Positions 1,985-24,000 of a DNA stretch of 24,000 nt are shown in pieces. The stretch covers positions 21,279 to 45,278 of the forward strand of contig CAWBOV010000003.1 of the NCBI GenBank assembly GCA_963790525.1. The letters run 5' to 3'. The translations under genes were made by a program, and so were the position numbers. The notes below the pieces were generated by a model. It saw only the letters and a program-made list of their open reading frames with translations, was not told the origin of the DNA and searched no databases. Every line of letters starts with the position of its first letter. Position 1 is the first letter of the stretch. Source of the DNA: an uncultured Actinomycetota bacterium. GTDB lineage: Bacteria; Actinomycetota; Actinomycetes; Mycobacteriales; Jatrophihabitantaceae.

Positions 1985-2016
1985 TCGTCACGGTGATGTT
2001 CGGTGCCAGGAGGCTA

Positions 2017-2045
2017 TTGACCGCATGGGCTAGCGGGTCTATGAA
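2017..2045 (+). promoter_or_regulatory. Candidate sigma-70/SigA-type promoter for hhySL
   Basis: TTGACC (2017-2022), a 17-nt spacer, then TATGAA (2040-2045), about 80 nt upstream of the hhyS ATG in the 140-bp hypB-hhyS gap. This is sequence pattern only. Confidence 0.3.
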
Positions 2046-2124
2046 CGGTAGGTAGGGCCGCAGGGTGGATCGGGCGCCGAGCCGCAGGCGACTTCATATC
2101 CGCTTGGGCGAAAAGGCGGTCGCG

Positions 2125-3180: not shown

Positions 3181-3243
3181 GCGGCCCAGCGCAACGACCC
3201 GCCCCATCCGGGCAGTGCCCGGCGACCCAGAGAGGCACCCGTC

Positions 3244-5040
3244 ATGACCTCGACCCGCTCCCGCCCGAGCCACGCCAGCGCCGAGGGCTCGGATGGCCTC
3301 GTCGAGATGTCCTGGGATCCCATCACGCGGATCGTGGGCAGTCTCGGCATCTACACAAAGATCGACTTCAAGCAGCGGGTCGTCGCCGAGTGCCACAGCA
3401 CGTCCTCGATCTTCCGCGGGTACTCGATCTTCATGAAGGGCAAGGACCCCCGGGACGCGCACTTCATCACCAGCCGGATCTGCGGGATCTGTGGCGACAA
3501 CCACGCGACGTGCTCGTGCTACGCGCAGAACATGGCCTACGGCGTGAAGCCGCCGCCCATCGGCGAGTGGATCGTGAACCTGGGTGAAGCGGCCGAGTAC
3601 ATGTTCGACCACAACATCTTCCAGGAGAACCTCGTCGGCGTGGACTACTGCGAGAAGATGGTCTCCGAGACGAACCCCGGCGTGCTGGAGCTGGCCAACA
3701 ACACCGAAGCGCCGCATGTGGGCGACCACGGCTACCGGACCATCGGCGACATCATGCGCTCGCTGAATCCGTTCACCGGCGAGTTCTACCGCGAGGCGCT
3801 GCAGGTCAGCCGCTCGACGCGGGAGATGTTCTGCCTCATGGAGGGGCGTCACGTGCACCCGTCCACGCTCTACCCGGGCGGCGTCGGCACGGTCGCGACG
3901 ATCCAGTTGATGACCGACTACATCACCCGGCTGATGCGCTACGTCGAGTTCATGAAGAAGGTCGTGCCGATGCACGACGACCTGTTCGACTTCTTCTACC
4001 AGGCACTGCCGGGCTACGAGCAGGTCGGCCTGCGCCGCACGTTGCTGGCCTGCTGGGGCTCGTTCCAGGACCCCGACTACTGCAACTTCGACTACAAGGA
4101 CATGACCCAGTGGGGCCGCAAGATGTACGTCACGCCGGGCGTCGTGGTCGACGGAAAGCTCGTGACCACGGACCTGGTCGAGATCAACCTGGGCATCCGG
4201 ATCCTGCTCGGCAGCTCCTACTACGACGACTGGGACGGCCAGGAGATCTTCGTCAAGAACGACCCGCTGGGCAATCCGGTCGATCGGCGCCACCCGTGGA
4301 ACCAGCACACCAACCCGCGTCCGCAGAAGCGCGATCTGGACGAGAAGTACAGCTGGGTGATGTCACCGCGGTGGTTCGACGGCAAGGACTATCTCGCGCT
4401 CGACACCGGCGGTGGCCCGCTGGCTCGGCTGTGGTCGACGGCGCTCGCCGGACTGGTCGACATCGGGTACGTGCAGTCGACCGGCAGCAGCGTCAAGATC
4501 AACCTGCCGAAGACGGCGCTGAAGGGTCCGGTCGAGTTCGAGTGGAAGATCCCGCAGTGGAGTAACACGATCGAGCGCAACCGGGCGCGCACGTACTTCC
4601 AGGCGTACGCGGCCGCGTGTGCGCTGCACTTCGCGGAGAAGGCGCTCGTCGAGATCCGGGCCGGCCGCACGAAGACGTGGGAGAAGTTCGAGGTGCCGGA
4701 CGAGGGCATCGGCTGCGGCTTCACCGAGGCCGTCCGCGGCGTGCTGAGCCACCACATGGTGATCAGGGACGGCAAGATCGCGAACTACCACCCGTATCCA
4801 CCGACGCCGTGGAACGCCAACCCGCGCGACTCCTTCGGCACGCCGGGTCCCTACGAGGACGCGGTGCAGGGTCAGCCGATCTTCGAGGAGAACGACCGCG
4901 AGCACTTCAAGGGCATCGACATCATGCGGACCGTGCGCAGCTTCGATCCGTGCCTGCCGTGCGGCGTGCACATGTACCTCGGCGGGGGCGTGACCCTGGA
5001 GGCGCTGCATTCGCCCACGCAGTCCGTCACCGGCGAATGA
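3244..5040 (+). CDS. hhyL: [NiFe]-hydrogenase large subunit, group 1h/5 (high-affinity, actinobacterial type)
   Basis: 598 aa. RBS AGAGAGG is about 8 nt upstream. The N-terminal Ni-Fe ligand motif is TSRICGICGDNH (RICGICGDNH = 3475-3504). The C-terminal motif SFDPCLPCGVH is at 4939-4971, followed by a 22-aa tail (MYLGGGVTLEALHSPTQSVTGE) expected to be removed by the endopeptidase. These motif variants are diagnostic of group 1h/5. Confidence 0.95.
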   Translation: MTSTRSRPSHASAEGSDGLVEMSWDPITRIVGSLGIYTKIDFKQRVVAECHSTSSIFRGYSIFMKGKDPRDAHFITSRICGICGDNHATCSCYAQNMAYGVKPPPIGEWIVNLGEAAEYMFDHNIFQENLVGVDYCEKMVSETNPGVLELANNTEAPHVGDHGYRTIGDIMRSLNPFTGEFYREALQVSRSTREMFCLMEGRHVHPSTLYPGGVGTVATIQLMTDYITRLMRYVEFMKKVVPMHDDLFDFFYQALPGYEQVGLRRTLLACWGSFQDPDYCNFDYKDMTQWGRKMYVTPGVVVDGKLVTTDLVEINLGIRILLGSSYYDDWDGQEIFVKNDPLGNPVDRRHPWNQHTNPRPQKRDLDEKYSWVMSPRWFDGKDYLALDTGGGPLARLWSTALAGLVDIGYVQSTGSSVKINLPKTALKGPVEFEWKIPQWSNTIERNRARTYFQAYAAACALHFAEKALVEIRAGRTKTWEKFEVPDEGIGCGFTEAVRGVLSHHMVIRDGKIANYHPYPPTPWNANPRDSFGTPGPYEDAVQGQPIFEENDREHFKGIDIMRTVRSFDPCLPCGVHMYLGGGVTLEALHSPTQSVTGE

Positions 5041-6012
5041 CCATGCCCGGGCCCGCGACCGCGGCCGACCACGCAGGTCGACCGAGCCAGCCGGCCCAGG
5101 CTGATCAACTGCGAGCCGCGGGGGACCGCATCGAGTCGCTCATCGACGCGTGCGCGACCGGTGGCCCGTCCGCGCGCGCACGGGCCGAGGATCTCGTCGC
5201 GTCGGTGTCGACGCTCTACGGCGCCGGTCTCGGACGGCTGCTCGAGATCCTCGACGAGGCCGGCCGACTCGGGCCGTCCGTGCTCGACGCGCTCGCCGAC
5301 GACGAGCTCGTCTCCGGCCTGCTGCTGGTGCACGACCTGCACCCCTACGACGTCGACACCCGGATCGGGCGCGCGCTGGACAAGGTCCGGCCCTACCTGG
5401 GCACGCACGGCGGCGATGTCGAGCTGCTCGGCATCGACGACGAAGGGGTCGTGCGGCTGCGCCTGCTCGGCAGTTGCGACGGCTGCCCGTCCTCGTCGGT
5501 GACGTTGGAGCTGGCGGTGGAGGGTGCGGTGGCCGCGGCCGCGCCCGAGATGACGCGCATCGAGGTGACCGCAGGCGCGGCGACGAAGGCGCAGCCGGTG
5601 GGAGGCCTGATCACACCCGACTCGCTGCGGTCCCGCATCGACCGGCAGCCGGCGCGCGTCGGCCGACCTGGCGCGTCGCTGCCCGAGCTCGCGGAGCTGG
5701 CGCCGGGCCGACTGGCGGGCTTCGAGTTCGACGGCCTGACGCTCTGCGCCTGCCGCATCGGCAACGACTGTCTACTGTTTCCGCGACCGGTGCGGGCACT
5801 GCGGGCAGAGCCTGGCCGGCAGCGTGATCGAGCGGCGGCTCGGTGACGCGGTCGGTTCCGGCGTGCTGCGGTGCGCCCGCTGCCGTGCGCACTTCGACGT
5901 GCGTCGCGCCGGTGTCGGTCTGGACGACGCCGAGGAGCACCTCGAACCGTTGCCCGTCCTCGTCCGCGACGGCGTCCTGTCCGTGGCGCTCCCGTCCCCA
6001 GCCGTGCCATGA
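5037..6012 (+). pseudogene. hhyE: HhyE-like putative Fe-S protein (NifU-like domain plus Rieske-type Cys/His domain), with the frame broken by one extra nt at about 5769
   Basis: ATG 5037 overlaps the hhyL stop (ATGA); ATG 5043 is an alternative start. Frame 0 gives the NifU-C-like sequence GGDVELLGIDDEGVVRLRLLGSCDGCPSSSVTLE. After ...LCACRIGND the track frame degenerates and stops at 5846. Frame +1 from 5770 instead reads VYCFRDRCGHCGQSLAGS...VLRCARCRAHFDV (C-x-H ... C-x2-H) through to TGA 6010-6012. Confidence 0.7.
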
Positions 6013-6675
6013 GTACCCCGCCGCTGTTCGTCCTGCGGCGCATCGCGCAACGCCCGCCGCCACCTCCGGCCGGCGAGGTGTGCGAGATGTGCGGCGTCGC
6101 GATCGACGAGCACGAGCACGGGCATGTGGTCGACCGGGCGAGCCGATCGCTGATGTGCACCTGCCGCCCGTGCTACCTGCTGTTCACCGCCGAAGGGGCG
6201 GAGCTGCGCTTCCGGGCCGTGCCCGATCGCTACCTCTCCTTCCCCGACTTCCAGCTCGGTCCGGGGCAGTGGGATCAGCTCGAGATCCCGGTCGGGCTGG
6301 CGTTCTTCTTCCACAACTCGACGATGCAGCGGATGGTCGCCTTCTACCCGGGTCCGGCCGGCGCCACCGAGTCCGAACTTCCCTTGGATGCGTGGAGCAC
6401 GGTCACCGCGCAGAATCCCGCAGCTGCGGCTGCTGACCCCCGACGTCGAAGCCCTGCTCGTGCGCACCCCGACCGCGGCAGCGGCGAGGTGAGTTGTCAT
6501 CTCGTCCCGATCGACGTCTGTTACGAGCTGGTCGGCGGGCTGCGCTCGGTGTGGCGGGGTTTCGACGGCGGGCGTGAGGCGCAGCGACCGCATCGACGGG
6601 TTCTTCCGGAAGGTCGCCGAGCGCAGCCGTCCGGCGCCCTCCGTCCTCGCGATGCAGGACGAGGTGGCCCGATGA
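6009..6675 (+). pseudogene. Conserved hydrogenase-cluster protein of unknown function with a Cys-rich N-terminus (recalled as the DUF5947 family, unverified); three frame breaks
   Basis: ATG 6009 overlaps the hhyE stop (ATGA). MSTPPLFVLRRIAQ...CEMCGVAIDEHEHGHVVDRASRSLMCTCRPCYLLF... GC3 and peptide coherence show frame 0 to 6419, an extra nt at about 6420 and frame 1 for QLRLLTPDVEALLVRTP. A 1-nt loss at about 6470 returns to frame 0 for DRGSGEVSCHLVPIDVCYELVGGLRSVWRGFDGGREAQ. An extra c at 6585 then gives frame 1 for DRIDGFFRKVAERSRPAPSVLAMQDEVAR, ending at TGA 6673-6675, which overlaps the next ATG. Confidence 0.6.
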
Positions 6676-7315
6676 CCGCGCTCAGCTTCGCCGTGGCGGA
6701 CGTGTTCGCCGAGCCGTACGCCGTCGCGCCGCAGCTCACCGCCCGCCTGCGCATCGAGGAGTCGACCGGCGCGACGATCCACGCGATCGCGCTGCGCGCC
6801 CAGGTGCGCATCGAACCGCAGCGCCGGCCCTACAGCGCGGACGAGGAGAGCGCTGCTGCTCGACATCTTCGGAACGCGTGACCGGTGGTACGACACGCTG
6901 AAGCCGTTCATGTGGATGCAGGCCGGCGCGATGGTGCAGGGGTTCACCGGCATCACCGAGGTCGACCTGGCATTGCCGTGCACCTATGACTTCGACGTCG
7001 ACCGCGTCGAAGTACCTGCACGCGCTGCGCGACGGCGCGGTCAGCGTGGTGCTCCTGTTCTCCGGGACGGTGTTCATCCGGGGCGAGCGTGGGTTCGGCG
7101 TCGAGCAGGTGCCATGGGATCGCGAAGCCCGCTACGAGATGCCGATCACGGTGTGGCGCGACCTGATCGACCGGTACTTCCCGGGTACCGGCTGGCTGCG
7201 CCTCGATCGCGACCTGATCGAGGCACTGGCGCGCCACAAGGCCGACCACGGCCTCATCTCCTGGGACGAGACGGTGCGGGCGCTGCTGGCCGAGGCGGAC
7301 AGGACGCGGACGTGA
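6672..7315 (+). pseudogene. Conserved hydrogenase-cluster protein of unknown function (recalled as the DUF6084 family, unverified); two frame breaks
   Basis: ATG 6672 (ATGA overlap). Frame 0 reads MTALSFAVADVFAEPYAVAPQLTARLRIEESTGATIHAIALRAQVRIEPQRRPYSADEE. An extra a at 6849 leads to frame 1, ALLLDIFGTRDRWYDTLKPFMWMQAGAMVQGFTGITEVDLALPCTYDFDV. An extra nt at about 7000 leads to frame 2, TASKYLHALRDGAVSVVLLFSGTVFIRGERGFGVEQVPWDREARYEMPITVWRDLIDRYFPGTGWLRLDRDLIEAL...DRTRT, ending at TGA 7313-7315. Confidence 0.6.
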
Positions 7316-8699
7316 AGCCCGCCCCGAGCGCGGCCGAGTACGCCCGTACGGTCGCGGATGCCGTGCTCTACGAGGGGTACCTGCTCTATCCCTACCGGGC
7401 CAGCTCCGGCAAGAACCGGTCCCGCTGGCAGTTCGGCGTGCTCGGTCCGACCGGGGCGGCGTTGTCGGGTCACGGCGAGGACTCCTCGCTGGCATCGCAG
7501 TTCCTGGTGCGCGCACCCGATCCCGCGTCGGCCGCCATCACGCTCGAGCTGCGATTCCTCCACCTGCAGAAGCGCAGCGCCCAGCTGGCCGGAGCGGACG
7601 GCCGGTTCGTCGAGGTCAGCGAGTTGGTGGCCGGCGAGCAGCGCTGGCTGACCTGGGAAGAGGCCGCCGCGCACGAGCATCTCGTGCGGACCGTGGTCGC
7701 TGGCGGCACTGGCCGAGGGCCGGACCGAGCCGATCGAGGTCGCCGCCGGAGCGGAGACGGAGCCGAACCCCGGCAGCACCCCCGCGGCCCGGTTGGTGCG
7801 CAGCCGCCGCCGGCTGCAGGCCGAGCTGGATGTCCGAGCCGAGCCGGTCGGCGGCGACCTCGTCCGCATCTCGATGCAGCGTCACCAACACCACGCCGGA
7901 CGCGGCCGGTGACCACGCTGCGGCGACCGCCGCGTCGTTCCTCGGCGCCCACCTGCTGGTCGAGGTCGAGCACGCCGAGGCACTGTCGATGACCGATCCT
8001 CCCGAGGACGCAGTCGACGCGGCCGGTCGGTGCATCCAGCACCGCTGCTGGCCCGTGCTGGCCGGGCCGGCCGATGACACGTCGCTGGTGCTGGTGTCGC
8101 CGATCATCCTGTACGACCACCCCGAGATCGCCGAGCAGAGCGCCGGTGCGCTGTTCGACTCGACCGAGATCGACGAGATCCTGACCCTGCGGGTGATGAC
8201 CCTGACCGACGAGGAGAAGGCCGCCGCCCGTGCCACCGATCCGCGGGCCGCCGAGATCATCGACCGGTGCGATGCGATGTCGCCGGACGCCATGGCGCAG
8301 CTGCACGGGATCCTCCGCGATCCGCATGCCCTGACCGATGCCGTCGATCCGGCCGGCTCGTTCGGGTTCGACGCCGAGGTGCCCTGGTGGGATCCAGCCG
8401 TCGACGCGAGCGTCTCGCCCGAGACGGACGAGGTCATCGTCGGCGGGGTGGCGGTGTCGGCCGGCAGCATCGTCCGGATCCATCCGTCACGGCGCGCGGA
8501 TGCGCAGGATCTCTTCTTCACCGATCAGGTCGCCCGGGTCGTGGCGGTCCAGTCCGACGTGGACGGCGACACCCACGTCGCTGTGGTTCTTCTCGACGAT
8601 CCGGCCGCCGACCTGCACGAGTGGTACGGCCGGTACCTGTACTTCGCCCCCGACGAACTCGAACCGATGCACGACAACCGAGAGGAGAGCCGATCGTGA
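7312..8699 (+). pseudogene. Conserved hydrogenase-cluster protein of unknown function (about 460 aa); two frame breaks
   Basis: GTG 7312 overlaps the preceding stop (GTGA). Frame 1 reads VKPAPSAAEYARTVADAVLYEGYLLYPYRASSGKNRSRWQFGVLGP...WLTWEEAAAHEHLVRTV. An extra nt at about 7696 leads to frame 2, SLAALAEGRTEPIEVAAGAETEPNPGSTPAARLVRSRRRLQAELDVRAEPVGGDLVRISMQ. An extra c at 7880 leads to frame 0, VTNTTPDAAGDH...ILYDHPEIAEQSAGALFDSTEIDEILTLRVMTLTDEEK...YLYFAPDELEPMHDNREESRS, ending at TGA 8697-8699. Confidence 0.55.
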
Positions 8700-8815
8700 G
8701 AACCGTAGGAATCGCCGCCACCGTACTGGCCGTGGCGGCGGTCGCCGGTGCGGTGGCGCTGGGTGTCACGTCGATACCGGACATCAAGCGCTACCTCAAG
8801 ATGCGCGCGATGTAG
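8696..8815 (+). CDS. Tiny (39-aa) single-pass membrane protein, in a conserved position before the endopeptidase gene
   Basis: GTG 8696 overlaps the preceding stop (GTGA). VRTVGIAATVLAVAAVAGAVALGVTSIPDIKRYLKMRAM has one hydrophobic helix and a basic tail. It is embedded in a longer Arg-rich track ORF (8267..8815) whose upstream part is the shadow of the previous gene. Confidence 0.45.
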   Translation: MRTVGIAATVLAVAAVAGAVALGVTSIPDIKRYLKMRAM

Positions 8816-8829
8816 GAGGACGGCAGCCC

Positions 8830-9360
8830 ATGACCGACCGCGTACTGGTCGCCGGGATCGGAAACATCTTCTTCACCGACGATGGATTCGGCCCAGCGGT
8901 CGTCGAAGCATTGCTCAGCGATGCTGCCCGATGGCCGTTTCCGGCGCCGGTGCGGGTGGTCGACTACGGCATCCGTGGCATGCACCTGAGCTACGACCTC
9001 CTGGCCGGAGTGGGGGCGCTCGTCCTCGTCGATGCGGTGCCGCCCGGGACCGGGCAGACGGCCGTGCCCGGCGCGCTCGTCACGCTGCGGATCGGCCCGC
9101 GCGACATCGCCCACGCACCTGCCGACGTCGACGCGCACAGCATGTCGCCGGTCGCAGTGCTCGCCGGCCTCGCCCCGATGGGTGGCGAAGTCCCGACCAC
9201 GTACCTCGTCGGCTGCATCCCGGCGGACGTGTCCGACGGAATGGGCCTGAGCGAAGCGGTCCGGGCTGCCGTGGCACCGGCGGCCGACCTCGTCCACGAC
9301 CTGGTCGGCCGGTTGCTCATGGAGCGGGAATCAGCCGAACCGATGGCGGCGGGTGGTTGA
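8830..9360 (+). CDS. hupD: [NiFe]-hydrogenase maturation endopeptidase (HupD/HyaD/HybD family)
   Basis: MTDRVLVAGIGNIFFTDDGFGPAVVEAL...VRVVDYGIRGMHLSYDLL...LVLVDAV...DAHSMSPVAVL matches the family's GxGN..xxDDGxG, D and H metal-ligand pattern. The start is internal to track ORF 8338..9360. Confidence 0.85.
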   Translation: MTDRVLVAGIGNIFFTDDGFGPAVVEALLSDAARWPFPAPVRVVDYGIRGMHLSYDLLAGVGALVLVDAVPPGTGQTAVPGALVTLRIGPRDIAHAPADVDAHSMSPVAVLAGLAPMGGEVPTTYLVGCIPADVSDGMGLSEAVRAAVAPAADLVHDLVGRLLMERESAEPMAAGG

Positions 9361-9361
9361 C

Positions 9362-9591
9362 GTGTGTCTCGGAATTCCCGGCCAGGTGGTCGCACGGGTC
9401 GAGGGCTACGGCGATCAACTCGTCCTCGTCGACGTGGTGGGCGCCCAACGACAGATCAACATCGGCATGCTCGACGACGGCGACCAGGCCGCGCTGGCGG
9501 TCGGTGACTGGGTTCTGATCCACATGGGCTTCGCCGTCGAGCGGGTCGACGAGGCCGGGGCGGCGACGGCGATGGCCGGGCTGGAGCTGAT
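9362..9591 (+). CDS. hypC: HypC/HupF-type hydrogenase assembly chaperone (copy 1); no in-frame stop as sequenced, so it reads into hypF
   Basis: GTG 9362 followed by TGT gives the obligatory (M)CLGIPGQVV N-terminus. ...GDWVLIHMGFAVERVDEAGAATAMAGLEL is typical HypC. The nominal end is set at the TGATG motif (9589-9593). The TGA there is one base out of frame with hypC. Confidence 0.75.
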
Positions 9592-11896
9592 GGGACAGGC
9601 GCGCGAGACGCGTGCACGCCGGCGCTTCCGGGTGCACGGGGTCGTCCAGGGCGTGGGTTTCCGGCCGTTCGTCTACGTGACCGCCACCGAGCTGGAACTG
9701 ACCGGGTCGGTGGCCAACGACGCGGCCGGCGTGAGCATCGAGGTCGAGGGCGAGCCGGCGGCGCTGGCCGAGTTCGCCCGCCGGCTCGAGCGGGATCCGC
9801 CGCCGCTCGCGATGGTCGAATCCGTCGAGTCGACCGAGCTCGAGGTGCTCGGGGGGACCGGGTTCGTCATCGAGGGCAGCCGGCCGGATGACCGGGCGCG
9901 CACCCTGGCCTCGCCGGACGTCGCCACGTGTGCCGACTGCCTGAGCGGAGTTCGCCGATCCGTGGCGACCGCCGGTACCGCCACCCGTTCATCACCTGCA
10001 CCAACTGCGGCCCGCGCTTCACGATCATCACCGAGCTGCCTTACGACCGGGCGGCCACGACGATGGCCGACTTCGCCCTGTGCGACGCCTGCAGGGCCGA
10101 GTACGCGGACCCGGCGGACCGGCGCTTCCACGCCCAGCCGATCGGCTGCCACGACTGCGGTCCGGTACTGGAGTTCCGCGACCGGCACGGCGGCACCGCG
10201 ACGGGTCCCGCGGCGCTGCGGACCGCGCGCGCCGCGTTGCGTGCGGGCGCGATCGTCGCCGTGAAGGGACTCGGCGGTTACCACCTGGCCTGCGACGCCG
10301 GCGACGACCTGCGGTGACCGAGCTGCGGCGCCGCAAGGGCCGCGGTCGGCAAGCCGTTCGCCCTCATGGTCGCCGACCTGGCCGTGGCCCGTGAGCTCGT
10401 GGAGATCGACGACGGAGGAGCAGGCGCTGCTGACCGGCGCTCGGCGGCCGATCGTCCTGCTGGCCCGGCGCCCCGAGGCCGCCGGGCCGGTGGCCGCGTC
10501 GGTGGCCCCGGGCACCCCGGATCTCGGGCTGATGCTGCCCTACACGCCGTTGCACCACCTGCTGTTCGGACTCGACGGTGATGACGCCGGACCGCGGGTG
10601 CTCGTGATGACCTCGGGCAACCTCGGCGGGGAACCGATCGTCACCGACGACGAGGACGCGGTGTCACGCCTGGCGGAACTGGCCGACGGCTGGCTATGGC
10701 ACGACCGGCCGATCGAGGTGCCGTGCGACGACTCGGTCGTGCGCATCGTCGACGGGGCGGAGATGGCGGTCCGGCGCTCCCGCGGTTACGCGCCCCTGCC
10801 GATCGCGCTGCCGTTCCCGGTCGCCCCGCTCCTCGCGGTCGGCGCCGACCTGAAGAGCACCTGCTGCGTGGCCGAAGGGCGCTACGCGTGGCTCAGCCAG
10901 CACGTCGGTGACATGGACGACCTGGCGACCCTGGATGCGTTCACGCACGCGGAACTGCACCTGGAGATGCTCACCGGTGTGACGCCCGAGCGCGTGGTCG
11001 CCGACGCGCCATCCGGGCTACCGCTCGAGCCGTCTGGGCACGGAGCCACGCCGCTGGACGGCCGGTCGAGACCGTCCAGCACCATCACGCCCACATCGCG
11101 TCGGTGATGGCCGAACACGGACTGGACGGCAGCGCCCCGGTCATCGGCATTGCCTTCGACGGGACGGGGTACGGCGACGACGGCGCGGTCTGGGGCGGTG
11201 AAGTGCTCGTCGCCGACTACAAGCAGTACCGCCGAGCGACCCACCTCGCCTACGTGCCGCTGGCCGGCGGCGATGCGAGCGTCGAACGTCCGTACCGGAT
11301 GGCGCTGTCGCACCTGCGAGCGGCCGGCATCGAGTGGGCCGACGACCTGCCGTGCGTCGCCGCCTGCCCGGCCGCGGAGCGCGACGTGCTGGGCCACCAG
11401 TTCGAGACCGGCTTCGGCTGCACGCCGACCTCGAGCATGGGCCGGCTCTTCGACGCGGTCGCCTCCGTGCTCGGAGTCCGTCAGCGCGTCGACTACGAAG
11501 CGCAGGCCGCGATCGAGCTGGAGGGTCTGGCCCGCTCCGCTGGCGCCGTGCAGCGGCTACCGGTTCGGTACGGATCCCGCCGGCTACGTCGACGCTTCCC
11601 CCGTTCTCCGCGCGCTCGTGCGCGACCAGCGCACCGGGGTCGCTACGGGCGAGATCGCGGGGCGCTTCCACCAGGGCGTCGCCGACCTGATCGCCGAGGT
11701 CGCCGTGCGTGAACGCGCGAACACCGGTATCGGCACCGTCGTGCTGGGCGGCGGCGTCTTCCAGAACGTGGTGCTGCTGTCGAGCGCGCGCCGGCTGCTG
11801 CGTGACGCCGGGTTCGCCGTGCTGGTGCCGTCGCGGCTGCCGCCGAACGACGGCGGTCTGGCGCTGGGACAACTCATGATCGCCGCGACGAGGTAG
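9590..11896 (+). pseudogene. hypF: Carbamoyltransferase HypF (CN-ligand synthesis), frame broken at about 8 single-nt indels
   Basis: Acylphosphatase domain: MGQARETRARRRFRVHGVVQGVGFRPFVY. Zn fingers: CADCLS|EFADP|[22 protein letters not shown]...[28 protein letters not shown]. YrdC-like region: [23 protein letters not shown]|GKPFALMVAD...EIDD|EEQALLTGARRPIVLL. Kae1-like region: HPGYRSS|VWARSHAAGRPVETVQHHHAHIASVMAEHG...GGGVFQN...PPNDGGLALGQ. Frame switches lie at 9947(+1), 9963(+1), about 10309(-1), 10347(+1), 10414(+1), 11009(+1), 11031(+1) and about 11548(+1). The stop is TAG 11894-11896. Confidence 0.88.
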
Positions 11897-11906
11897 GGAG
11901 ACTCTC

Positions 11907-12214
11907 ATGTGCCTTGCGGTTCCCGGGCAGATCATCAGCATCGCCGAGCGCGACGACACGCTGATGGCCGACGTCGACTTCGGGGGAGTGACCAAGGACG
12001 TCTGCCTGGCCTACATCCCCGATGCGGTCGTGGGGGAGTACGTCGTCGTCCACGTCGGCTTCGCCATCCAGCGACTGGACGAACGTTCGGCCCGGGAGAC
12101 GCTCGCGAACTTCGAGAAACTCGGCATCCTGACCGAGGAGTTCGGGGACGGCTTCGAGCTGGCGGCCAGGCAGGCCGGCATCACCGAGCAGGCACACACG
12201 GGAGAGGACCCCCG

Positions 12215-12218
<4 letters not shown>
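11907..12218 (+). CDS. hypC: HypC/HupF-type hydrogenase assembly chaperone (copy 2)
   Basis: RBS GGGAG at 11897-11901. [14 protein letters not shown]...[24 protein letters not shown]. The stop overlaps the hypD start (ATGA, 12215-12218). Confidence 0.9.
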
Positions 12219-13316
<1,098 letters not shown>

Positions 13317-13324
<8 letters not shown>

Positions 13325-14423
13325 TCCGCTGCTGGCCGAGCCGCGCGAGGCGGCCGACGACCCGGAGGCCGCGACGATAGACCTGGACACCTGGGTGTGC
13401 CCGGCTCCGCTGCGCGAATCGCCCGTCATCGTCATGGGACACGGTGGCGGCGGGGCGATGTCGGCCGAGCTGATCGAGCACCTGTTCCTGCCGGCCTTCG
13501 GCAGCGCCGCTGACGCGCACCTCGCCGACTCCGCCGTCGTCGAGATCGGCGGGGTGCGGCTCGCGTTCTCCACCGACTCGTTCGTGGTCAAGCCGATGTT
13601 CTTCCCCGGCGGCTCGATCGGTGACCTGGCCGTCAACGGCACGGTCAACGATCTTGCGATGGTCGGCGCGATGCCCTTGGTCCTGTCGACCGCCTTCATC
13701 CTCGAAGAGGGGACGCCGCTCGCGGAGCTGGGTCAGGTGGCCGAGGCGCTCGGCGCGGCCGCACGGCTGGCCGGCGTCAAGCTCGTCACCGGTGACACGA
13801 AGGTCGTCGACAGTGGCAGCGGCGACGGCGTGTACATCAACACCGCCGGCATCGGTCTCGTGGCCGAGGGCGTCGACATCCGGCCCGAACGGGCGTCGGC
13901 GGGCGACGTGGTGATCATCAGTGGTCAGATCGGGGTGCACGGGATCGCGGTCATGAGCTGCCGTGAGGGACTGTCCTTCGGCACCGCTGTCTCCAGCGAT
14001 TGCGCCGCCGTGCACGGGTTGGTCGCCGCGATGATCGCCACCGGCGCCGACATCCACACCCTGCGCGACCCGACCCGCGGCGGCGTCGCGGCGTCGCTGA
14101 ACGAGATCGCCCAGGCCGCCGGCGTCGGTATCACCCTGGACGAGAGGGACCTGCCGATCCCGCAGGCGGTGCGCGATGCCTGCGGGCTGCTCGGGCTCGA
14201 CCCGCTCTACGTGGCCAACGAGGGCAAGCTGCTCGCGATCGTCGCGCGGGAGGATGCCGACACGGTGCTCGCGGCCATGCGAGCGCACGAACTGGGGCGC
14301 GACGCGCTGGTGATCGGCGAGTGCGAGGCGCAGCACCCGGGCCTGCTCACGGCGCGTACCGCACTCGGCGGTACCCGGGTCGTCTCGCTGCCGATCGGTG
14401 AACAGCTGCCGCGGATCTGCTGA
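13317..14423 (+). CDS. hypE: Hydrogenase maturation carbamoyl dehydratase HypE
   Basis: 368 aa with a PurM-like fold signature ([43 protein letters not shown]). The diagnostic C-terminal PRIC motif is present. There is an 8-nt overlap with hypD. Confidence 0.93.
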
Positions 14424-14436
14424 TGGGCCGGGGCTG

Positions 14437-15162
14437 ATGGGTTCGCCGGGCGCGATCATGTTCGCGCGCTACGCCTACCCACCCAACGTCCTCGGCTACT
14501 GCGGCCCCGATGACGCGTCCACGCTGTTGAGCCGGGACGCCCCCGACACGGACGCGCGCATCGCCCGGCACGCTCGCGAGTTCGAGGGCGCGTGGACCTA
14601 CCTGGCGCTGATCGCAGCGTCCGCCGGGATCGCCGACCCGCTCGACGAACGCGTCGTCGAGGCCTACTGGGTCGGCAACGAGCTGCTCGACGAGATCGAC
14701 CAGGGCGCGATGCTGGACGAGCTCCGGCGGCGTTTCGTCGGCCAGAACGATGCCGGCTGGATCCCGGGGCCACCGCACCACGGCTTCCACGTCTTCACGA
14801 TCTACCCCTGGGTGAGGCTGCTGCGCCGGGACGCCAATCGCTCGGTGGCCGTGTCCGTGCTGGAGCAGTGCCGCATCCGCTGGGGCCGGGTACTCGCCGT
14901 CGAGGGCGAGCGGGTCCGGGTGCTGACGCACCCACTCGTCTTCGCCGACGGCGTGCTCCGACTCGGGCCCGCTCGGGAACAGACAGCGGCCTGGTCGATC
15001 GACGGGGTGTCGGTGCTGCCCTCGCTCGCCGTCGGCGATCACGTCGCACTGCACTGGGACTGGGTGTGCGACGTCCTCGATGATCGGCAGCGCAAGGAAC
15101 TCGAAGCCCGCAACGACGAGCAGCTCGCCGCGACCAATCTCGCTCTGCGCGCCGATCGGTGA
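14437..15162 (+). CDS. Conserved protein of unknown function that follows hypE in group 1h loci (recalled as DUF6390, unverified)
   Basis: MGSPGAIMFARYAYPPNVLGYCGPDD...VVEAYWVGNELLDEID...HHGFHVFTIYPWVRLL...ALHWDWVCDVLDDRQ. Codon bias is coherent. Possible starts are 14437 or 14458; the track start at 14398 overlaps hypE. Confidence 0.55.
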   Translation: MGSPGAIMFARYAYPPNVLGYCGPDDASTLLSRDAPDTDARIARHAREFEGAWTYLALIAASAGIADPLDERVVEAYWVGNELLDEIDQGAMLDELRRRFVGQNDAGWIPGPPHHGFHVFTIYPWVRLLRRDANRSVAVSVLEQCRIRWGRVLAVEGERVRVLTHPLVFADGVLRLGPAREQTAAWSIDGVSVLPSLAVGDHVALHWDWVCDVLDDRQRKELEARNDEQLAATNLALRADR

Positions 15163-18502: not shown

Positions 18503-19591
18503 TCAGACGGGCGGAGCGCATCCGCAGCTGCGGCGAACCACGAGTTCGCTGTTCTCGATCTGCACGACCGGCCCGCCTGAGGGTTGTTCGACGGCGTCGA
18601 TGAGCAGGTCCGCCGCGGTCGCGCCCATCTGCTGCATGGGGTGGTTCACGGTGGTCAGTGCCGGTTCGATGGCCTCCGCGGCCTGAAGGTTGTCGAACCC
18701 GGTGACGGCCAGGTCGCCGGGAACCGCCAACCCGGCCGCGGTCGCGGCGGCGACGGCATAGGCGGCATGGAGGTCCGATGCGCACACGAAGGCGTCCGGG
18801 ACTCCCCGGGCGATCGACTGCCGGAAGGCGTCCAGGGTCTCGTGTGCATGCCATACCGCCCCGAACCCACCCTCCGGGCTCGCGGGTGGTGTCGCGCCGG
18901 CGGCGCGGAGCGCGTCGCTGAACCCCTCGAAACGGACGTCGTAGTCGACCGATCCGGACCCGATGAAGCGCAGATCGCGGTAGCCGTGGACCTCCAGCAG
19001 GTGATGCGTCAGCCGCGACATCCCCTCCCGGTTGTCCGTCCCTACCTGCCACTCCTGTCGGCGCTCGGCCTCGACCTCTGCGATCGCCACCACCGGGCGA
19101 TAGGTGGCGATCGTCTCGCGGATCTTCGTCGCCATGGAGTTGGGCATCACGGCGATCGCGTCCACCCGCGAGGCGAGGTCGCGTACCCGTTCCTCCTCGT
19201 CGCCGAGACCGTTGCCCAGAACCAGGATCGAATAGCCCCGCGCCCACGCCCGCCTCGTGAAGCCGCGTTCGACCTCGTCGATGAACAGCGGCCAGTCCCA
19301 GCACCGGGACAGGCCGTGCGCGGCGGCTGTCGAGTGGCTGAACTCGGTGTAGTCGTAGGTCCAGAATCCCAGTACCCCGGTGCGCCCCAACGCGAGGTCC
19401 CGGGCGGCACCCCGAGGGACGTAGTGCAACTCGCGGGCAGCCTGGAGGATCCGTTCCCGCGTCGCCGGAGCCACGCGTCCCGGCTTGGAGAAGGCGAACG
19501 ACACCGTCGCGATCGAGACGCCCGCCCGCTCCGCGACCGTGTAGATCGTCGGCTGCGTGGACCGGGACGTGTCCTCTGGCGGTTCGCTCAC
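18503..19591 (-). CDS. LacI-family transcriptional regulator
   Basis: The N-terminal HTH is TIYTVAERAGVSIATVSFAFSKPGRVAPATRERILQAARELHYVP, followed by a periplasmic-binding-protein-like sugar-binding core. I favour GTG 19591 (VSEPPEDTSRSTQPTIYTV). The upstream in-frame ATG 19645 and TTG 19648 would place the operator palindromes inside the CDS. Confidence 0.85.
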   Translation of the reverse strand: MSEPPEDTSRSTQPTIYTVAERAGVSIATVSFAFSKPGRVAPATRERILQAARELHYVPRGAARDLALGRTGVLGFWTYDYTEFSHSTAAAHGLSRCWDWPLFIDEVERGFTRRAWARGYSILVLGNGLGDEEERVRDLASRVDAIAVMPNSMATKIRETIATYRPVVAIAEVEAERRQEWQVGTDNREGMSRLTHHLLEVHGYRDLRFIGSGSVDYDVRFEGFSDALRAAGATPPASPEGGFGAVWHAHETLDAFRQSIARGVPDAFVCASDLHAAYAVAAATAAGLAVPGDLAVTGFDNLQAAEAIEPALTTVNHPMQQMGATAADLLIDAVEQPSGGPVVQIENSELVVRRSCGCAPPV

Positions 19592-19621
19592 CAAGCCACC
19601 ATAACTTGCGGAGAGTGCGTC

Positions 19622-19686
19622 TAAGCGCTTAAATGCTCCCAGCATCAAAGCGCTTAACAGGAAGCGCGCCCGGTTATGTGCGCGCT
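19622..19686. promoter_or_regulatory. Two LacI-type operator palindromes plus a GC-rich inverted repeat in the lacI / giant-ORF divergent region
   Basis: TAAGCGCTTA (19622-19631) is a perfect 10-bp palindrome. AAGCGCTT (19648-19655) is a perfect 8-bp palindrome, 25 bp centre to centre from the first. AGCGCGC-N10-GCGCGCT spans 19663-19686. The AANCGNTT core is the classic LacI/GalR half-site pair. Confidence 0.5.
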
Positions 19687-19714
19687 CGGATCAGCCGACG
19701 AGTGAGGAAGAACC

Positions 19715-22700
19715 ATGCGAGCGAGCACCTGGCACGATGCTGTCGAGGCATCCGCGATGGCCGGTCGGCCATCGCGATTCTCGTGGCACCCGGGGCTACG
19801 TTCCGCTCGGCGACGTCGCCTGGCCATGGTGACGATCCTCGGGCTGCTCGCCGGCATGCTGGTCGGCGGTTCGAACGCGATCGTCGGGCACGTGGCCACC
19901 GCGAGCGCGGCGACGACGCCGAGTTGCGTCAACACGCTGTACTCGGTCGACTGGTTCACGGGCACTGTCAACCAGATCGCGCTTCCGAACGGCAGCGCGA
20001 GCGGCGCCGCCGTGAGTTCTGTGGTCGGCGACCTCGGCGTGGACGAGCCCTTCGCCCGCTACAACGCACTGGCGCTCACGACGGACGGCACGACCCTGTT
20101 CGCCGCGGACCAGTCCTCGGGTACCGGTGACTACATCTACCGCATGGATGTGGCGACGGGGACCGTGACGGCGTACCCCAACGCGCAGTCCGGCATCGTG
20201 GGGTCGCTCATCGGTGGCGCGATCGATCCCGTGAACGGGCTGTACTACCTGCTCACCTTCGGCACGACGCCCACCCTCTACGCCTTCGACACCACCACGA
20301 ACACGTGGATCGGCAAGGTCGGGTCGTTCCCCGGGACAGCGGCAGGGATGAATGGTCAGAACATCTCCGACATCGCGTTCGACGCCAACGGAACGATGTT
20401 CTTCACCGCCAACACGACGTCCAACGGCCACTCGCTCTACCGCGTGAGCGGCCCGGTCCCCGCCACGGCAGGATCGGCGACGCTCACGCCGGCGCTGGTG
20501 TCGGCCGATCTGTTGCCGAACGACAACGAGATCGGCTCGTTGGCCTTCGGATCGACGGGTGACCTGTACCTCGGCCAGATCGCATCACCCCAGATACAAG
20601 AGCTGAACCCTGCGAACGGCGCGGTGGTCTCACAGTCCAGTGGTACCCCGATCCCCGGTAATCCGTCCGACTTCGCCTCCTGCGCGCAACCGTCGACCTT
20701 GACCGTGGTCAAGGACGTCGTGAACCGGACGAACAGCTCCGACGAATTCACCCTGGGCATCGGCGGCCTGGACACCCCCGCAACAGCCACCACGACCGGC
20801 ACGGCGACCGGCCTGCAGAGCGCCGCCGCCGGCCCGGTCGTCGTGAGCCCGGGCGTCGCCTACCCCGTCTCGGAATCCGGCGCGGGAAGCACCGACCTCA
20901 GCACGTATTCGGCGAGCTACCAGTGCGTCGATTCCGACAACAACGTGCTGGCATCCGGTGCGGCCACGTCGTTCGACTACACGGCGCCACCACCGGTCGA
21001 CGGGCACGGTGTCGCGGCAACCTGCACCTTCACGAATACGCCGCTCCCGCGCAGTTACACGGTGAAGAAGACCTCGTCGGCCGCGACCGCCCTTCCCGGT
21101 GACGTCGTCACCTATTCGGTGAAGGTGACCAACACGGGCCCGGTCGCCTACACCGCGGCCGACCCGGCGTCGTTCACCGACGACCTGTCCGCCGTCCTCG
21201 ACGACGCGACCTACAACGGCGACGCGTCCGGCGGCGCGACCGTCTCGGGATCCACCCTGTCGTGGTCGGGCGCTCTGGGCGTCGGCCAGACGATCACAGT
21301 CACGTACTCGGTGACGGTCAAGGACCCTGATACGGGCAACCGGACGTTGACCAACACGGTCACGCCGACCGGTCCAGGCGGCTCCTGCGTCTCCACCGCG
21401 GATTGCACCACCACGACCACCGTCCCCGGCCCCACCTACACGGTCGCCAAGAGCGCGTCGGCGAATACGGCGCAGCCCGGCGATGTCGTCACTTACTCGG
21501 TGGCGGTGAAGAACACCGGTCAGGTGGCCTACACGGCGGCCGACCCTGCGTCGTTCACCGACGACCTGTCCGCCGTCCTCGACGACGCGACCTACAACGG
21601 CGACGCCAGCAACGGGGCGACGGTCAGCGGCACCACCCTGTCCTGGTCGGGCGCCCTCGCCGTCGGGCAGACGGTGACCGTCACCTACTCGGTCACCGTG
21701 AAGAACCCCGATACCGGCGACAGGACGCTGACCAACGCCGTGGTGCCGACCGGGCCGGGCGGCACGTGCGCGACCCCGGGCGGCTGCACCACCACGACGA
21801 CCGTGCCGACGACCGGTTACACGGTCGCCAAGTCCGCCTCGGTCACCTCGGCGCAGCCCGGGGCCACGGTGACCTACACCGTGGCGGTCACCAACACCGG
21901 CCAGACCGCCTACACCGCCGCGAAGCCCGCCTCGTTCACCGACGACCTGTCCGCCGTCCTGGACGACGCCACCTACAACGGCGACGCCACCAACGGCGCC
22001 ACGGTCAGCGGGAACACGCTGTCCTGGTCGGGCGCCCTCGCGGTCGGGGCCACGGTGACAATCACCTACTCGGTCACCGTGAACGATCCCGATACCGGCG
22101 ACCACACCCTGACGAACGTGGTGGTGCCGACCGGCCCCGGCGGCTCCTGCGCCACGCCCGCCGGCTGCACCACGACCACCCCCGTGGCCTCGTTCACGGT
22201 CGCCAAGACCGCCTCCGCTGCCAGCGTCCTGCCCGGCGGAACCCTCACCTACTCGGTCGCCGTGAAGAACACCGGCGAGGTCGCCTACACCGGAGCGAAC
22301 CCGGCCTCGTTCACCGACGACCTGTCCGCCGTCCTGGACGACGCCACCTACAACGGCGACGCCGACCATGGCGCCACCGTCACCGGCCACACGCTGTCCT
22401 GGTCCGGCGCCCTCGCGGTCGGGGGAACGGTGACGATCACGTACTCGGTCACGGTCGCCAGCCCCGACACCGGCGATCATCTGCTGACGAACGCCGTGGT
22501 GCCGACGGGCCCGGGTGGCGGCTGTGTCAGCGCGGCCGGCTGCACGACCACCACCCCGGTCGCGTCGTACACCGTCGCGAAGACGGCCTCGGTGAACTCG
22601 GCGATGCCCGGCGACACCGTCACCTACACCGTGACCGCCGTGAACACCGGCCAGGTCGCCTACACGCAGGCCACTCCGGCGACCTTCACCGACGACCTCT

Positions 22701-24000
22701 CGGCGGTGCTGGACGACGCCACCTACAACGGCGACGCCACCAACGGGGCGACGGTCACCGGCAGCACGCTGTCCTGGTCCGGCGCCCTCCCCGTCGGCGG
22801 GACCGTGACGGTCACCTACTCGGTCACCGTGAAGAACCCGGACACCGGCAATCACCTGCTCACGAACGCCGTCGTGCCGACCGGCCCCGGCGGCGGCTGC
22901 GCCACCGCGGGCGGCTGCACGACCACCACGCCCGTCGGGTCGCTGCACGTCGTGAAGTCCACGACGGCGACCCAGGTACTGCCCGGCGCGACGGTGCCCT
23001 ACTCCGTCACCGTCACCAACACCGGCCAGGTCCCGTACACAGCGGCCCATCCGGCCTCGTTCACCGATGATCTGTCCTCTGTCCTGGACGACGCCACCTA
23101 CAACGGTGACGCGGCCAGCTCCAGCGGGCAGGGCGTGACCTACAGCGCTCCGGTGCTGTCCTGGTCGGGTGCCCTCGCGGTCGGGGCCACCGTCACGGTC
23201 ACCTACTCGGTGACCGTGAGCAGCCCGGACACCGGTGACCACCAACTCGAGAACGCGGTCGTCACGCCGCCCGGCGCAGGCGGCAACTGCCCGGCCGGCT
23301 CGACCGACCCCGACTGCGTCGTCAACGTCCCTTCAGGTTCGTTCACGGTCAGCAAGACGGCATCGGCGACCACCGCGAAGCCGGGCGACACCGTCACCTA
23401 CACGGTCACGGCCCACAACTCCGGCAACATCGCCTACACGGCGCAGAACCCGGCGTCCTTCACCGACGACCTGTCGGCGGTGCTGGACGACGCGACCTAC
23501 AACGGTGATGCCACCGCAGGCGCGACCGTCGCCGGTGACACCCTGTCGTGGTCGGGTCCGCTCCCCGCCGGGGGCACTGTCACCGTCACCTACTCGGTGA
23601 CCGTGCACGACCCGGACACCGGGGACCACGTCCTCACCAATGCGGTCGTGCCCACCGCGCCGGGCGGCGGGTGCGCCACCGAGGGCGGCTGCACCACCAC
23701 GACCCCGGTGTCCGGGTACACGGTCGCCAAGAGCGTGGACACGGTCGTCGCCCAGTCCGGGCAGAAAGTGACCTACACGGTCAGCGTCACGAACATCGGC
23801 CAGGTCGCCTACACGGCAGCTCACCCTGCGTCGTTCACCGACGATCTGTCGAAGGTGCTCGACGACGCCACCTACAACGGCGACGCCACCGCGGGAGCCA
23901 CGGTCACCGGCAGCACGCTGTCGTGGTCGGGCCCGCTCGCGGTCGGCGCGACGGTGCACGTGCGCTACTCGGTGACGGTGAAGACCCCGGACACCGGTGA
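19715..24000 (+). CDS. Very large secreted/surface repeat protein (>1428 aa, 3' end outside the window). It has a signal peptide, a beta-propeller-like region, a prealbumin/Cna-B-like domain and at least 8 tandem DUF11-like (TIGR01451-like) domains
   Basis: The ORF is absent from the supplied track. In my manual translation the frame starting at 19715 has no stop through 24000. RBS GAGGAAG at 19704-19710 precedes the ATG; ATG 19757 is an alternative start. The N-terminus ...RSARRRRLAMVTILGLLAGMLVGGSNAIVGHVATASA is signal-peptide-like. GC3 is strongly elevated in this frame only. Confidence 0.85.
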   Translation, partial: MRASTWHDAVEASAMAGRPSRFSWHPGLRSARRRRLAMVTILGLLAGMLVGGSNAIVGHVATASAATTPSCVNTLYSVDWFTGTVNQIALPNGSASGAAVSSVVGDLGVDEPFARYNALALTTDGTTLFAADQSSGTGDYIYRMDVATGTVTAYPNAQSGIVGSLIGGAIDPVNGLYYLLTFGTTPTLYAFDTTTNTWIGKVGSFPGTAAGMNGQNISDIAFDANGTMFFTANTTSNGHSLYRVSGPVPATAGSATLTPALVSADLLPNDNEIGSLAFGSTGDLYLGQIASPQIQELNPANGAVVSQSSGTPIPGNPSDFASCAQPSTLTVVKDVVNRTNSSDEFTLGIGGLDTPATATTTGTATGLQSAAAGPVVVSPGVAYPVSESGAGSTDLSTYSASYQCVDSDNNVLASGAATSFDYTAPPPVDGHGVAATCTFTNTPLPRSYTVKKTSSAATALPGDVVTYSVKVTNTGPVAYTAADPASFTDDLSAVLDDATYNGDASGGATVSGSTLSWSGALGVGQTITVTYSVTVKDPDTGNRTLTNTVTPTGPGGSCVSTADCTTTTTVPGPTYTVAKSASANTAQPGDVVTYSVAVKNTGQVAYTAADPASFTDDLSAVLDDATYNGDASNGATVSGTTLSWSGALAVGQTVTVTYSVTVKNPDTGDRTLTNAVVPTGPGGTCATPGGCTTTTTVPTTGYTVAKSASVTSAQPGATVTYTVAVTNTGQTAYTAAKPASFTDDLSAVLDDATYNGDATNGATVSGNTLSWSGALAVGATVTITYSVTVNDPDTGDHTLTNVVVPTGPGGSCATPAGCTTTTPVASFTVAKTASAASVLPGGTLTYSVAVKNTGEVAYTGANPASFTDDLSAVLDDATYNGDADHGATVTGHTLSWSGALAVGGTVTITYSVTVASPDTGDHLLTNAVVPTGPGGGCVSAAGCTTTTPVASYTVAKTASVNSAMPGDTVTYTVTAVNTGQVAYTQATPATFTDDLSAVLDDATYNGDATNGATVTGSTLSWSGALPVGGTVTVTYSVTVKNPDTGNHLLTNAVVPTGPGGGCATAGGCTTTTPVGSLHVVKSTTATQVLPGATVPYSVTVTNTGQVPYTAAHPASFTDDLSSVLDDATYNGDAASSSGQGVTYSAPVLSWSGALAVGATVTVTYSVTVSSPDTGDHQLENAVVTPPGAGGNCPAGSTDPDCVVNVPSGSFTVSKTASATTAKPGDTVTYTVTAHNSGNIAYTAQNPASFTDDLSAVLDDATYNGDATAGATVAGDTLSWSGPLPAGGTVTVTYSVTVHDPDTGDHVLTNAVVPTAPGGGCATEGGCTTTTPVSGYTVAKSVDTVVAQSGQKVTYTVSVTNIGQVAYTAAHPASFTDDLSKVLDDATYNGDATAGATVTGSTLSWSGPLAVGATVHVRYSVTVKTPDTG
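21056..24000 (+). repeat. In-frame tandem coding repeats, 8 copies (the last truncated by the window edge), unit 375-399 nt
   Basis: Unit starts ([YFL][TH]V.K) are at 21056, 21437, 21818, 22193, 22568, 22943, 23342 and 23717, giving periods of 381, 381, 375, 375, 375, 399 and 375 nt. A 59-nt run (21167-21225) is identical at 21548-21606. Conserved peptide blocks are PASFTDDLSAVLDDATYNGDA, LSWSGAL.VG.TVTVTYSVTV, PDTGD and GPGG.C....GCTTTT. Confidence 0.95.

Follow-up and report, generated by a model that had tools for sequence, protein, structure and literature searches.

The 24,000-nucleotide (nt) stretch of DNA analysed here, called the window hereafter, is part of contig CAWBOV010000003.1 of an uncultured Actinomycetota bacterium. 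It ends within a long open reading frame (ORF) that encodes an array of repeated domains in a protein of at least 1428 amino acids (aa), the 3' end of the ORF lying beyond the window. This array probably forms the rod-like stalk of a secreted fibrillar adhesin, likely anchored to the cell wall, which is made of self-cross-linking isopeptide domains of the DUF7927 family and belongs to a high-GC actinobacterium. Each unit of 125-133 aa is a DUF7927 domain, with the predicted fold of a CnaA-like immunoglobulin (Ig) beta-sandwich. After folding, Lys5 on strand 1 and Asn100 on the penultimate strand would most likely react spontaneously into an intramolecular isopeptide bond, with Asp42 as the catalytic acid and Tyr84 packing against the bond site. 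A disulfide between Cys111 and Cys117 would close the hairpin that precedes the last strand (CTTTTPV), and this strand would run directly into the next unit. Two covalent locks per unit may thus give resistance to heat, proteases and pulling force, and eight or more units would keep a beta-propeller head, with one SpaA_3 isopeptide domain between it and the stalk, tens of nanometres off the cell wall.

The eight units follow each other head to tail in one reading frame (Table 1). Unit boundaries were set by anchoring on FTDDLS, which gave periods of 381, 381, 375, 375, 375, 399 and 375 nt, in exact agreement with the eight units and the starts and periods proposed earlier from the letters alone (hereafter, the initial annotation). 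Tandem Repeats Finder reported one array, at 21095-23997, with a period of 375, 7.6 copies, 74% matches and a score of 2219.

For the whole adhesin, the Pfam matches were DUF7927 (PF25549; E 1.9e-142, 468.7 bits, eight stretches), DUF11 (E 3e-51), DUF7507 (E 2e-33) and a single SpaA_3 domain at aa 328-443. The NCBIfam matches were TIGR01451 (E 2.8e-40, 136 bits, eight stretches) and TIGR04226 (E 7.8e-30), the latter named "isopeptide-forming domain-containing fimbrial protein". When units were scanned singly, all eight passed DUF7927, with 57.6-79.4 bits for a gathering threshold of 31, and all eight passed DUF11, now CLIPPER (PF01345), with 31.1-36.4 bits for a cut-off of 24.6. The DUF11/TIGR01451 assignment of the initial annotation is thereby upheld, DUF7927 being stronger still. 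Because the DUF11/CLIPPER and TIGR01451 scores are the weaker ones, DUF7927 is the better family for the units, inside the DUF11/CLIPPER clan.

DUF7927 is one of ten new Pfam families predicted to hold an isopeptide bond, described in a survey of the AlphaFold database for intramolecular isopeptide bonds, where it is placed among the CnaA-like families of the E-set clan and where DUF11 was renamed CLIPPER (Costa et al. 2025, PMC12617251). Among 1.84 billion representative proteins, an eight-unit profile matched 4241 (E <= 1e-3), of which 951 also passed E <= 1e-30. The matched family proteins have up to 31 repeats and up to 5652 aa; eight or more units are therefore ordinary for the family, and tandem repetition in long actinobacterial surface proteins is common to the window units and their family. 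The repeats are real, the family had been rightly assigned, and the adhesin is nothing out of the ordinary within its known class. Its interest lies in showing, in a natural protein, a clean case of a stalk built from DUF7927, a family defined only in 2025; what is known of bacterial adhesins is otherwise unchanged.

Probable isopeptide triad, predicted fold and disulfide

Lys5 (in YTVAK) and Asp42 (in FTDD) are found in units 1-8, and Asn100 in units 1-7, unit 8 ending before position 100 (residues are numbered within the unit). The Asn stands in the context LTNAVV, or LENAVV in unit 6. The Lys/Asp/Asn spacing of 37/58 resembles the 36/64 of the triad predicted for DUF7927 in A0A6G8FG97, Lys125/Asp161/Asn225 (PMC12617251).

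Conservation of these residues was followed in 1932 domain instances, taken from the 150 best family proteins and 23 short homologues by means of a hidden Markov model built from the window units. The key positions were covered by 1353 instances, of which 90% had K5, 95% D42 and 91% N100. K5 and N100 occurred together in 1189 domains, were both absent from 81, and only one was present in 83 (odds ratio 58, Fisher p 1e-67). D42 was conserved in 100% of the domains with both K and N, and in 32% of those lacking both. In a mean-field direct coupling analysis (DCA; 1718 domains, 7260 pairs), K5-N100 ranked first, D42-N100 second and K5-D42 fourth, and Y84 was coupled to K5, D42 and N100. These counts and couplings are evidence, independent of AlphaFold, for K5/D42/N100 being a functional and spatial triad. 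A Lys5-Asn100 intramolecular isopeptide bond is most likely present in each unit.

An AlphaFold2 (AF2) model of units 4 and 5, made from a 27-sequence alignment, had a predicted local distance difference test (pLDDT) score of 96.8 and a predicted template modelling score of 0.86. It placed nine main strands and one short helix (S45-L48) in each unit, with K5 on the first strand, D42 where the third strand ends and N100 on the penultimate one. Foldseek comparison of the two-unit model with the PDB matched the tandem Ig-like legs of integrins, the CLIPPER domain 9IFR (template modelling (TM) score 0.69, normalised to the target; 26% identity), and the C-terminal isopeptide domains of SspB (2WZA, TM 0.59), which with SpaP (3OPU) formed the best two-domain match group. 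The initial annotation had named structure prediction as a check for an Ig-like fold; the model and its matches to 9IFR and the SspB domains support a CnaA-like Ig beta-sandwich. Among PDB sequences, 9IFR was the sole match of the eight-unit profile, at a marginal E of 0.038, in an end-to-end alignment that included the ...C-TTTTPV segment. A search of the same sequences with a single unit yielded only chance V-ATPase matches, with E above 0.7.

The CLIPPER domain 9IFR, from the Gram-negative fibrillar adhesin B9T28_05395, contains a bond between K715 and N806, close to D748, while its last strand holds a CTTC disulfide; the isopeptide bond was shown experimentally to confer thermostability and protease resistance (PMC12617251). 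Like the units as modelled, it is a nine-strand CnaA-like beta-sandwich in which the first strand bears the Lys, the penultimate strand the Asn, and an Asp is the catalyst, and in both proteins a disulfide at the start of the last strand is followed by TTTTPV. Beyond the low identity and the marginal profile match, it differs from the window units in its four-residue CTTC disulfide, where they have C-x5-C or C-x8-C, and in its canonical DUF11 segment LGQGLSFVSG, in the place of which they carry LSAVLDDATYNGDA. The antigen I/II C-terminal domains (SspB and SpaP) likewise consist of Ig-like domains in tandem, every one of which has a Lys-Asn isopeptide bond, but they share only about 11-15% identity with the units, belong to another family and a streptococcal host, and do not form long uniform arrays.

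The cysteine loop had been described as Cys-x6-Cys and as a likely disulfide-stapled linker. The spacing is in fact C-x8-C in unit 6 and C-x5-C in the other units whose cysteines are visible (1-5 and 7). A Cys111-Cys117 disulfide is supported by the family, in which 83% of 1478 domains have exactly two cysteines, and by the disulfide of 9IFR at the matching place; C111-C117 ranked 82 of 7260 pairs in the DCA. Disulfides often accompany isopeptide bonds and are present in 41% of actinobacterial isopeptide domains (PMC12617251). The term linker did not hold: in the AF2 model the loop is a hairpin between the penultimate and the last strand (C117-TTTTP) of the same domain.

Unit 6 had been singled out as the outlier of the array. 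It is indeed 133 aa long, with an insertion and a CPAGSTDPDC loop, but its subtype is that of the family majority. Loops of eight residues, typically CPxGSTDPxC, were found in 615 of 1358 domains, and loops of five residues, the second commonest length, in 229. Seven of the eight window units are thus of the minority C-x5-C subtype, in which the array differs from the bulk of its family. The exact CPAGSTDPDC loop occurred in six of the family domains examined, and the longer segment of unit 6 at positions 56-62 is one that accompanies the eight-residue loop. By these comparisons, unit 6 reads as a mainstream family subtype within an expanded block of a minority subtype, not as a decayed copy.

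Several points weigh against the reading of the array as a self-cross-linked, wall-anchored stalk. The DCA and the co-occurrence counts are not fully corrected for common descent, and the domains entered the set through their resemblance to the window units. The Lys-Asn bond in DUF7927 is a prediction, in the literature as here. The profile alignment with 9IFR sets N100 three residues off Asn806, so that the match is inexact at the residue level. Finally, the C-terminus of the protein, and hence its anchor, lies beyond the window. The analysis shows directly the repeat structure, the family, the predicted fold, the conserved and co-varying triad and the order of domains, whereas bond formation itself, a role of the head in adhesion and a sorting signal at the C-terminus are what we infer. 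If correct, the residue map (K5/D42/N100 triad, Y84 packing, C111-C117 disulfide and D49/D50/D95 cluster) could guide a first crystal structure, and ligation parts of the SpyTag type could be designed from this domain, which is small and modelled with very high confidence.

The acidic block and a candidate calcium site

Each unit contains a 21-residue acidic block (PASFTDDLSAVLDDATYNGDA), which the initial annotation called invariant and regarded as a possible Ca2+ site. Invariance extends to 19 of the 21 columns, with deviations in units 5 (PATF), 6 (LSS) and 8 (LSK). Judged by co-variation, the block is composite and has three separate parts. D42, and D43 to a lesser degree, appear to belong to the isopeptide triad, D42 being the likely catalytic Asp. 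D49 and D50, each conserved in 85% of domains, remain at 88-91% where K and N are missing, and are coupled to P91, G94, D/N95 and H96 (DCA ranks 7, 9, 12, 19, 32 and 36). At position 95, 73% of domains have Asp and 13% Asn, with a change to Gly when D50 is lost. T52, N54 and D56, the last conserved in 65% of domains, form an antiparallel ladder with K89, T87 and S85 (ranks 3, 5 and 14) and are therefore strand residues.

Calcium sites occur in related adhesin Ig domains. D49 and D50, together with D/N95 at the end of the domain that would face the next unit, are a possible cation (Ca2+) site; alternatively, D50 could form a salt bridge to residue 96, a position at which 36% of domains have a basic residue (K, H or R). 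Such a site can coexist with the isopeptide bond, and only a version without the bond is a true rival. In that version the whole block would bind Ca2+, and calcium and the disulfide would stabilise each unit with no isopeptide bond. We consider this unlikely. It is favoured by the conservation of D49, D50 and D56 also in domains that lack K5 and N100, by the coupling of D49/D50 with G94 and D/N95 (ranks 7, 9, 12 and 19) and the joint loss of residue 95 and D50, and by the suitability of three clustered carboxylates in a secreted protein for a cation site. However, D42 tracks K5 and N100 and is coupled with them, not with D49/D50; the ladder of N54 and D56 with T87 and S85 lies about one strand length from D49/D50; and the frequent basic residue at position 96 may offer D50 another partner. 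A single Ca2+ loop made of the whole block is rejected on the co-variation pattern, and of the calcium proposal D49/D50 with D/N95 remain as the candidate.

Head, stalk and type of protein

The frame of the adhesin opens at 19706; GAGGAAGAA stands 5' of its first ATG, at 19715, and an alternative start is the ATG at 19757. A scan for promoter and terminator consensus sequences 5' of the ORF gave no match. The frame is unbroken over 4.3 kb, with a GC content at third codon positions (GC3) of 0.91. Two other long ORFs cover the repeat array, 20630-23245 (- strand, 871 aa) and 21403-23070 (+ strand, another frame, 555 aa). Since the adhesin frame is the one with the GC3 of 0.91, these are shadow ORFs of a high-GC repeat and not genes to annotate.

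Table 1. Coordinates of the adhesin, its domains and the adjacent regulatory features in the window
Feature	Position	Strand	Basis and details
LacI-family regulator gene	18503-19648	-	Divergent from the adhesin
Two TAAGCGCTTA copies in a 16+3+16 inverted repeat (probable operators)	19622-19656	.	Copies at 19622-19631 and 19647-19656; second copy AAAGCGCTTA
Adhesin ORF	19715-24000	+	Open at the 3' end, GC3 0.91, Pfam
Putative secretion signal	19715-19909	+	RRRR n-region, hydrophobic core aa 36-52, ATASA then ATT
N-terminal head, aa 66-327, predicted beta-propeller	19910-20695	+	AF2, Foldseek, homologues
SpaA_3 (PF20674) domain	20696-21043	+	Pfam E 2.8e-18
Unit 1, 127 aa	21056-21436	+	K5 21068, D42 21179, N100 21353, Cys111/117, C-x5-C; DUF7927 69.5 bits
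Unit 2, 127 aa	21437-21817	+	K 21449, D 21560, N 21734, C-x5-C; DUF7927 72.1 bits
Unit 3, 125 aa	21818-22192	+	K 21830, D 21941, N 22115, C-x5-C; DUF7927 75.1 bits
Unit 4, 125 aa	22193-22567	+	K 22205, D 22316, N 22490, C-x5-C; DUF7927 67.7 bits; AF2-modelled
Unit 5, 125 aa	22568-22942	+	K 22580, D 22691, N 22865, C-x5-C; DUF7927 71.9 bits; AF2-modelled
Unit 6, 133 aa	22943-23341	+	K 22955, D 23066, N 23252, C-x8-C (CPAGSTDPDC); DUF7927 75.7 bits
Unit 7, 125 aa	23342-23716	+	K 23354, D 23465, N 23639, C-x5-C; DUF7927 79.4 bits
Unit 8, ends at window edge after PDTG	23717-24000	+	K 23729, D 23840; Asn and cysteines off window; DUF7927 57.6 bits

Read by eye, the N-terminus (RRRR, a 17-residue hydrophobic core, then ATASA|ATT) looks like a secretion signal, with the start codon uncertain between 19715 and 19757; a counterpart, ...TVAQA|ATVSC, is present in the relative P0099. 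The head (aa 66-327) had no Pfam match. Modelled by AF2 together with SpaA_3 it was all-beta (pLDDT 77.7), and its Foldseek neighbours were generic beta-propellers (WD40, YWTD, YncE and TolB), so a beta-propeller is predicted. In SpaA_3, the triad K333/E387/N441 and the pair Cys404/Cys437 are all invariant in the alignment with two relatives, P0001 and P0002, and the triad spacing is 54/54, versus 55/56 for the SpaA_3 triad given in PMC12617251. The order putative signal peptide, predicted beta-propeller head, SpaA_3 and stalk is that of a typical fibrillar adhesin.

A word-indexed homologue search with the head found only P0001 and P0002, and a scan of genome contigs with it gave a single unrelated match of 25% identity. 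BLAST of the head against 150 family representatives found ten more proteins with the same head, and the idea that this head is very rare was rejected as an artefact of the sensitivity of the first search. The stalk of P0001 consists of CLIPPER_2 repeats and that of P0002 of SpaA-type domains with an LPXTG anchor; the head is therefore a module that travels with interchangeable stalks. The ten proteins, from the best 150 of the family, combine the head with SpaA_3 and a DUF7927 stalk of 4-17 units. Among them, P0099 is the closest full-length relative; it has seven units, and its head is 61% identical. All ten end with an L[PA]xTG- or HTGG-type motif, a membrane-spanning hydrophobic segment and an RRR tail. 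The visible part of the window protein (1428 aa), whose C-terminus lies off the window, contains no LPXTG/LAXTG sorting signal. A further locus (L002, 10001-15527) carries the same predicted propeller head and SpaA_3 with a CLIPPER_2 stalk; there the gene is split into three ORFs (510, 185 and 1140 aa) and ends without LPXTG, and the contig name of the assembly suggests nanopore sequencing.

The protein could instead be a sortase-polymerised pilin subunit, or a DUF11 protein of S-layer or porin type, which we hold to be very unlikely. In favour of it are the fimbrial-protein name of TIGR04226, the pilin-type nature of SpaA_3 and the occurrence of DUF11 proteins in archaeal S-layer porins (PMC12617251). 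However, neither the YPK pilin motif (with the Lys of YPKN) nor an E-box was found in the visible 1428 aa, on which ground a pilin subunit was rejected, and porin-type DUF11 domains mostly lack the isopeptide signature (PMC12617251), which is intact in units 1-7. In its large size, in having a non-repeat head at the N-terminus and in carrying a long stalk on a single chain, the protein follows the pattern of fibrillar adhesins (PMC12617251, PMC8286594): here a propeller head, SpaA_3 and at least eight tandem DUF7927 units.

Periscope Proteins are likewise surface proteins with an N-terminal head on a long stalk of similar tandem domains, and the copy number of the window protein's relatives also varies (4-17 units, in more distant relatives). 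The screen that defined them demanded tandem repeats at least 80% identical (Whelan et al. 2021, PMC8201768). In the window array only two of the seven adjacent pairs reach 80-82%, and the mean over all pairs is 72%, which falls short of that level. Given this shortfall and DNA identities of 63-81%, fast recombinational switching of length is unlikely; comparison of relatives indicates that copy number in the DUF7927 family shifts on evolutionary time scales.

Repeat divergence and genomic surroundings

The units had been called near-identical, with a concern that assembly had duplicated or collapsed them. The former overstates their similarity, and the latter was not supported. In pairwise comparisons, protein identity between units was 58-82% and DNA identity 63-81%, so that 19-37% of nucleotides differ; adjacent units shared 80, 82, 78, 78, 62, 58 and 68% of their residues. 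Exact runs common to two units were the 59-nt run of units 1 and 2 (21167/21548), as already reported in the initial annotation, and a 60-nt run of units 3 and 4. By the Nei-Gojobori method, the proportion of synonymous differences (pS) between units was 0.37-0.54, synonymous divergence (dS) 0.5-0.95 and the ratio of nonsynonymous to synonymous divergence (dN/dS) 0.2-0.6; pS was 0.39 within the conserved peptide block versus 0.45 outside. The nucleotide differences and the dN/dS values indicate that the units are old paralogues under purifying selection, each of which can be placed uniquely, and not duplicates made by an assembler.

An origin of all or part of the array in faulty assembly, with another true copy number, is thus highly improbable: a 375-nt period with exact runs of 59-60 nt is able to mislead short-read assemblers, and at least four frame changes in hypF, elsewhere in the window, imply indels in the assembly or the genome, but artefactual duplicates would be identical whereas all pairs differ, with high pS even within the conserved peptide block, the adhesin frame is unbroken, and arrays of 4-31 units are normal for the family. 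Nothing in the sequence suggests a collapse of extra near-identical copies, which reads would be needed to rule out. For annotation, the gene can be treated as coding for a surface adhesin of sortase type in a soil-type actinobacterium, with a genuine repeat array rather than an assembly problem.

Units 1-5, 7 and 8 are 67-82% identical among themselves, versus at most 69% to any unit of P0099, which points to amplification or homogenisation within the lineage. The window array is unusually uniform for the DUF7927 family: its mean pairwise unit identity was 72% versus a family median of 52%, and was exceeded in only two of 149 proteins.

On the 5' side of the adhesin, genes for a methyltransferase, a CLC channel and the LacI-family regulator all lie on the - strand. 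A pair of TAAGCGCTTA copies lies in the gap that separates the divergent LacI-family gene from the start of the adhesin. This self-complementary 10-mer has two matches for 0.05 expected, and none elsewhere in the window; the pair probably represents LacI-type operators. If so, the adhesin, the regulator or both would be under sugar-responsive control. A wider scheme, speculative and in our view doubtful, would join three elements: a D49/D50/D95 Ca2+ site as a third stabiliser that stiffens the domain junctions, a sugar-binding (lectin-like) propeller head, and LacI-family control through the two TAAGCGCTTA operators. A third stabiliser of Ca2+ type, if true, would be one not previously described for DUF7927. 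The other neighbouring genes have no obvious link to the adhesin, the LacI-family regulator being a possible exception.

Further upstream, a complete-looking [NiFe]-hydrogenase cluster with hyp maturation genes extends over 1178-15162 (small and large subunits, HypB-like, NifU-like, DUF5947, a HycI-like protease, HypC/F/D/E and DUF6390). It is of the kind seen in soil actinobacteria and is unrelated to the adhesin. In hypF (9353-11800), the coding signal, followed by GC3 and by the order of acylphosphatase, Zn-finger, YrdC and Kae1-like parts, changes frame at least four times. Matches to DUF6084 are split over two ORFs, 5871-6881 (profile positions 1-61) and 6910-7992 (profile positions 80-110), which suggests another frameshift in the cluster. 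These frame breaks reflect either decaying hydrogenase maturation genes or assembly indels. HypE (13317-14423) is 100% identical to P0176, and its nearest named relatives, at 78-87%, come from metagenome-assembled genomes of Actinomycetota, Nocardioidaceae and Propionibacteriales.

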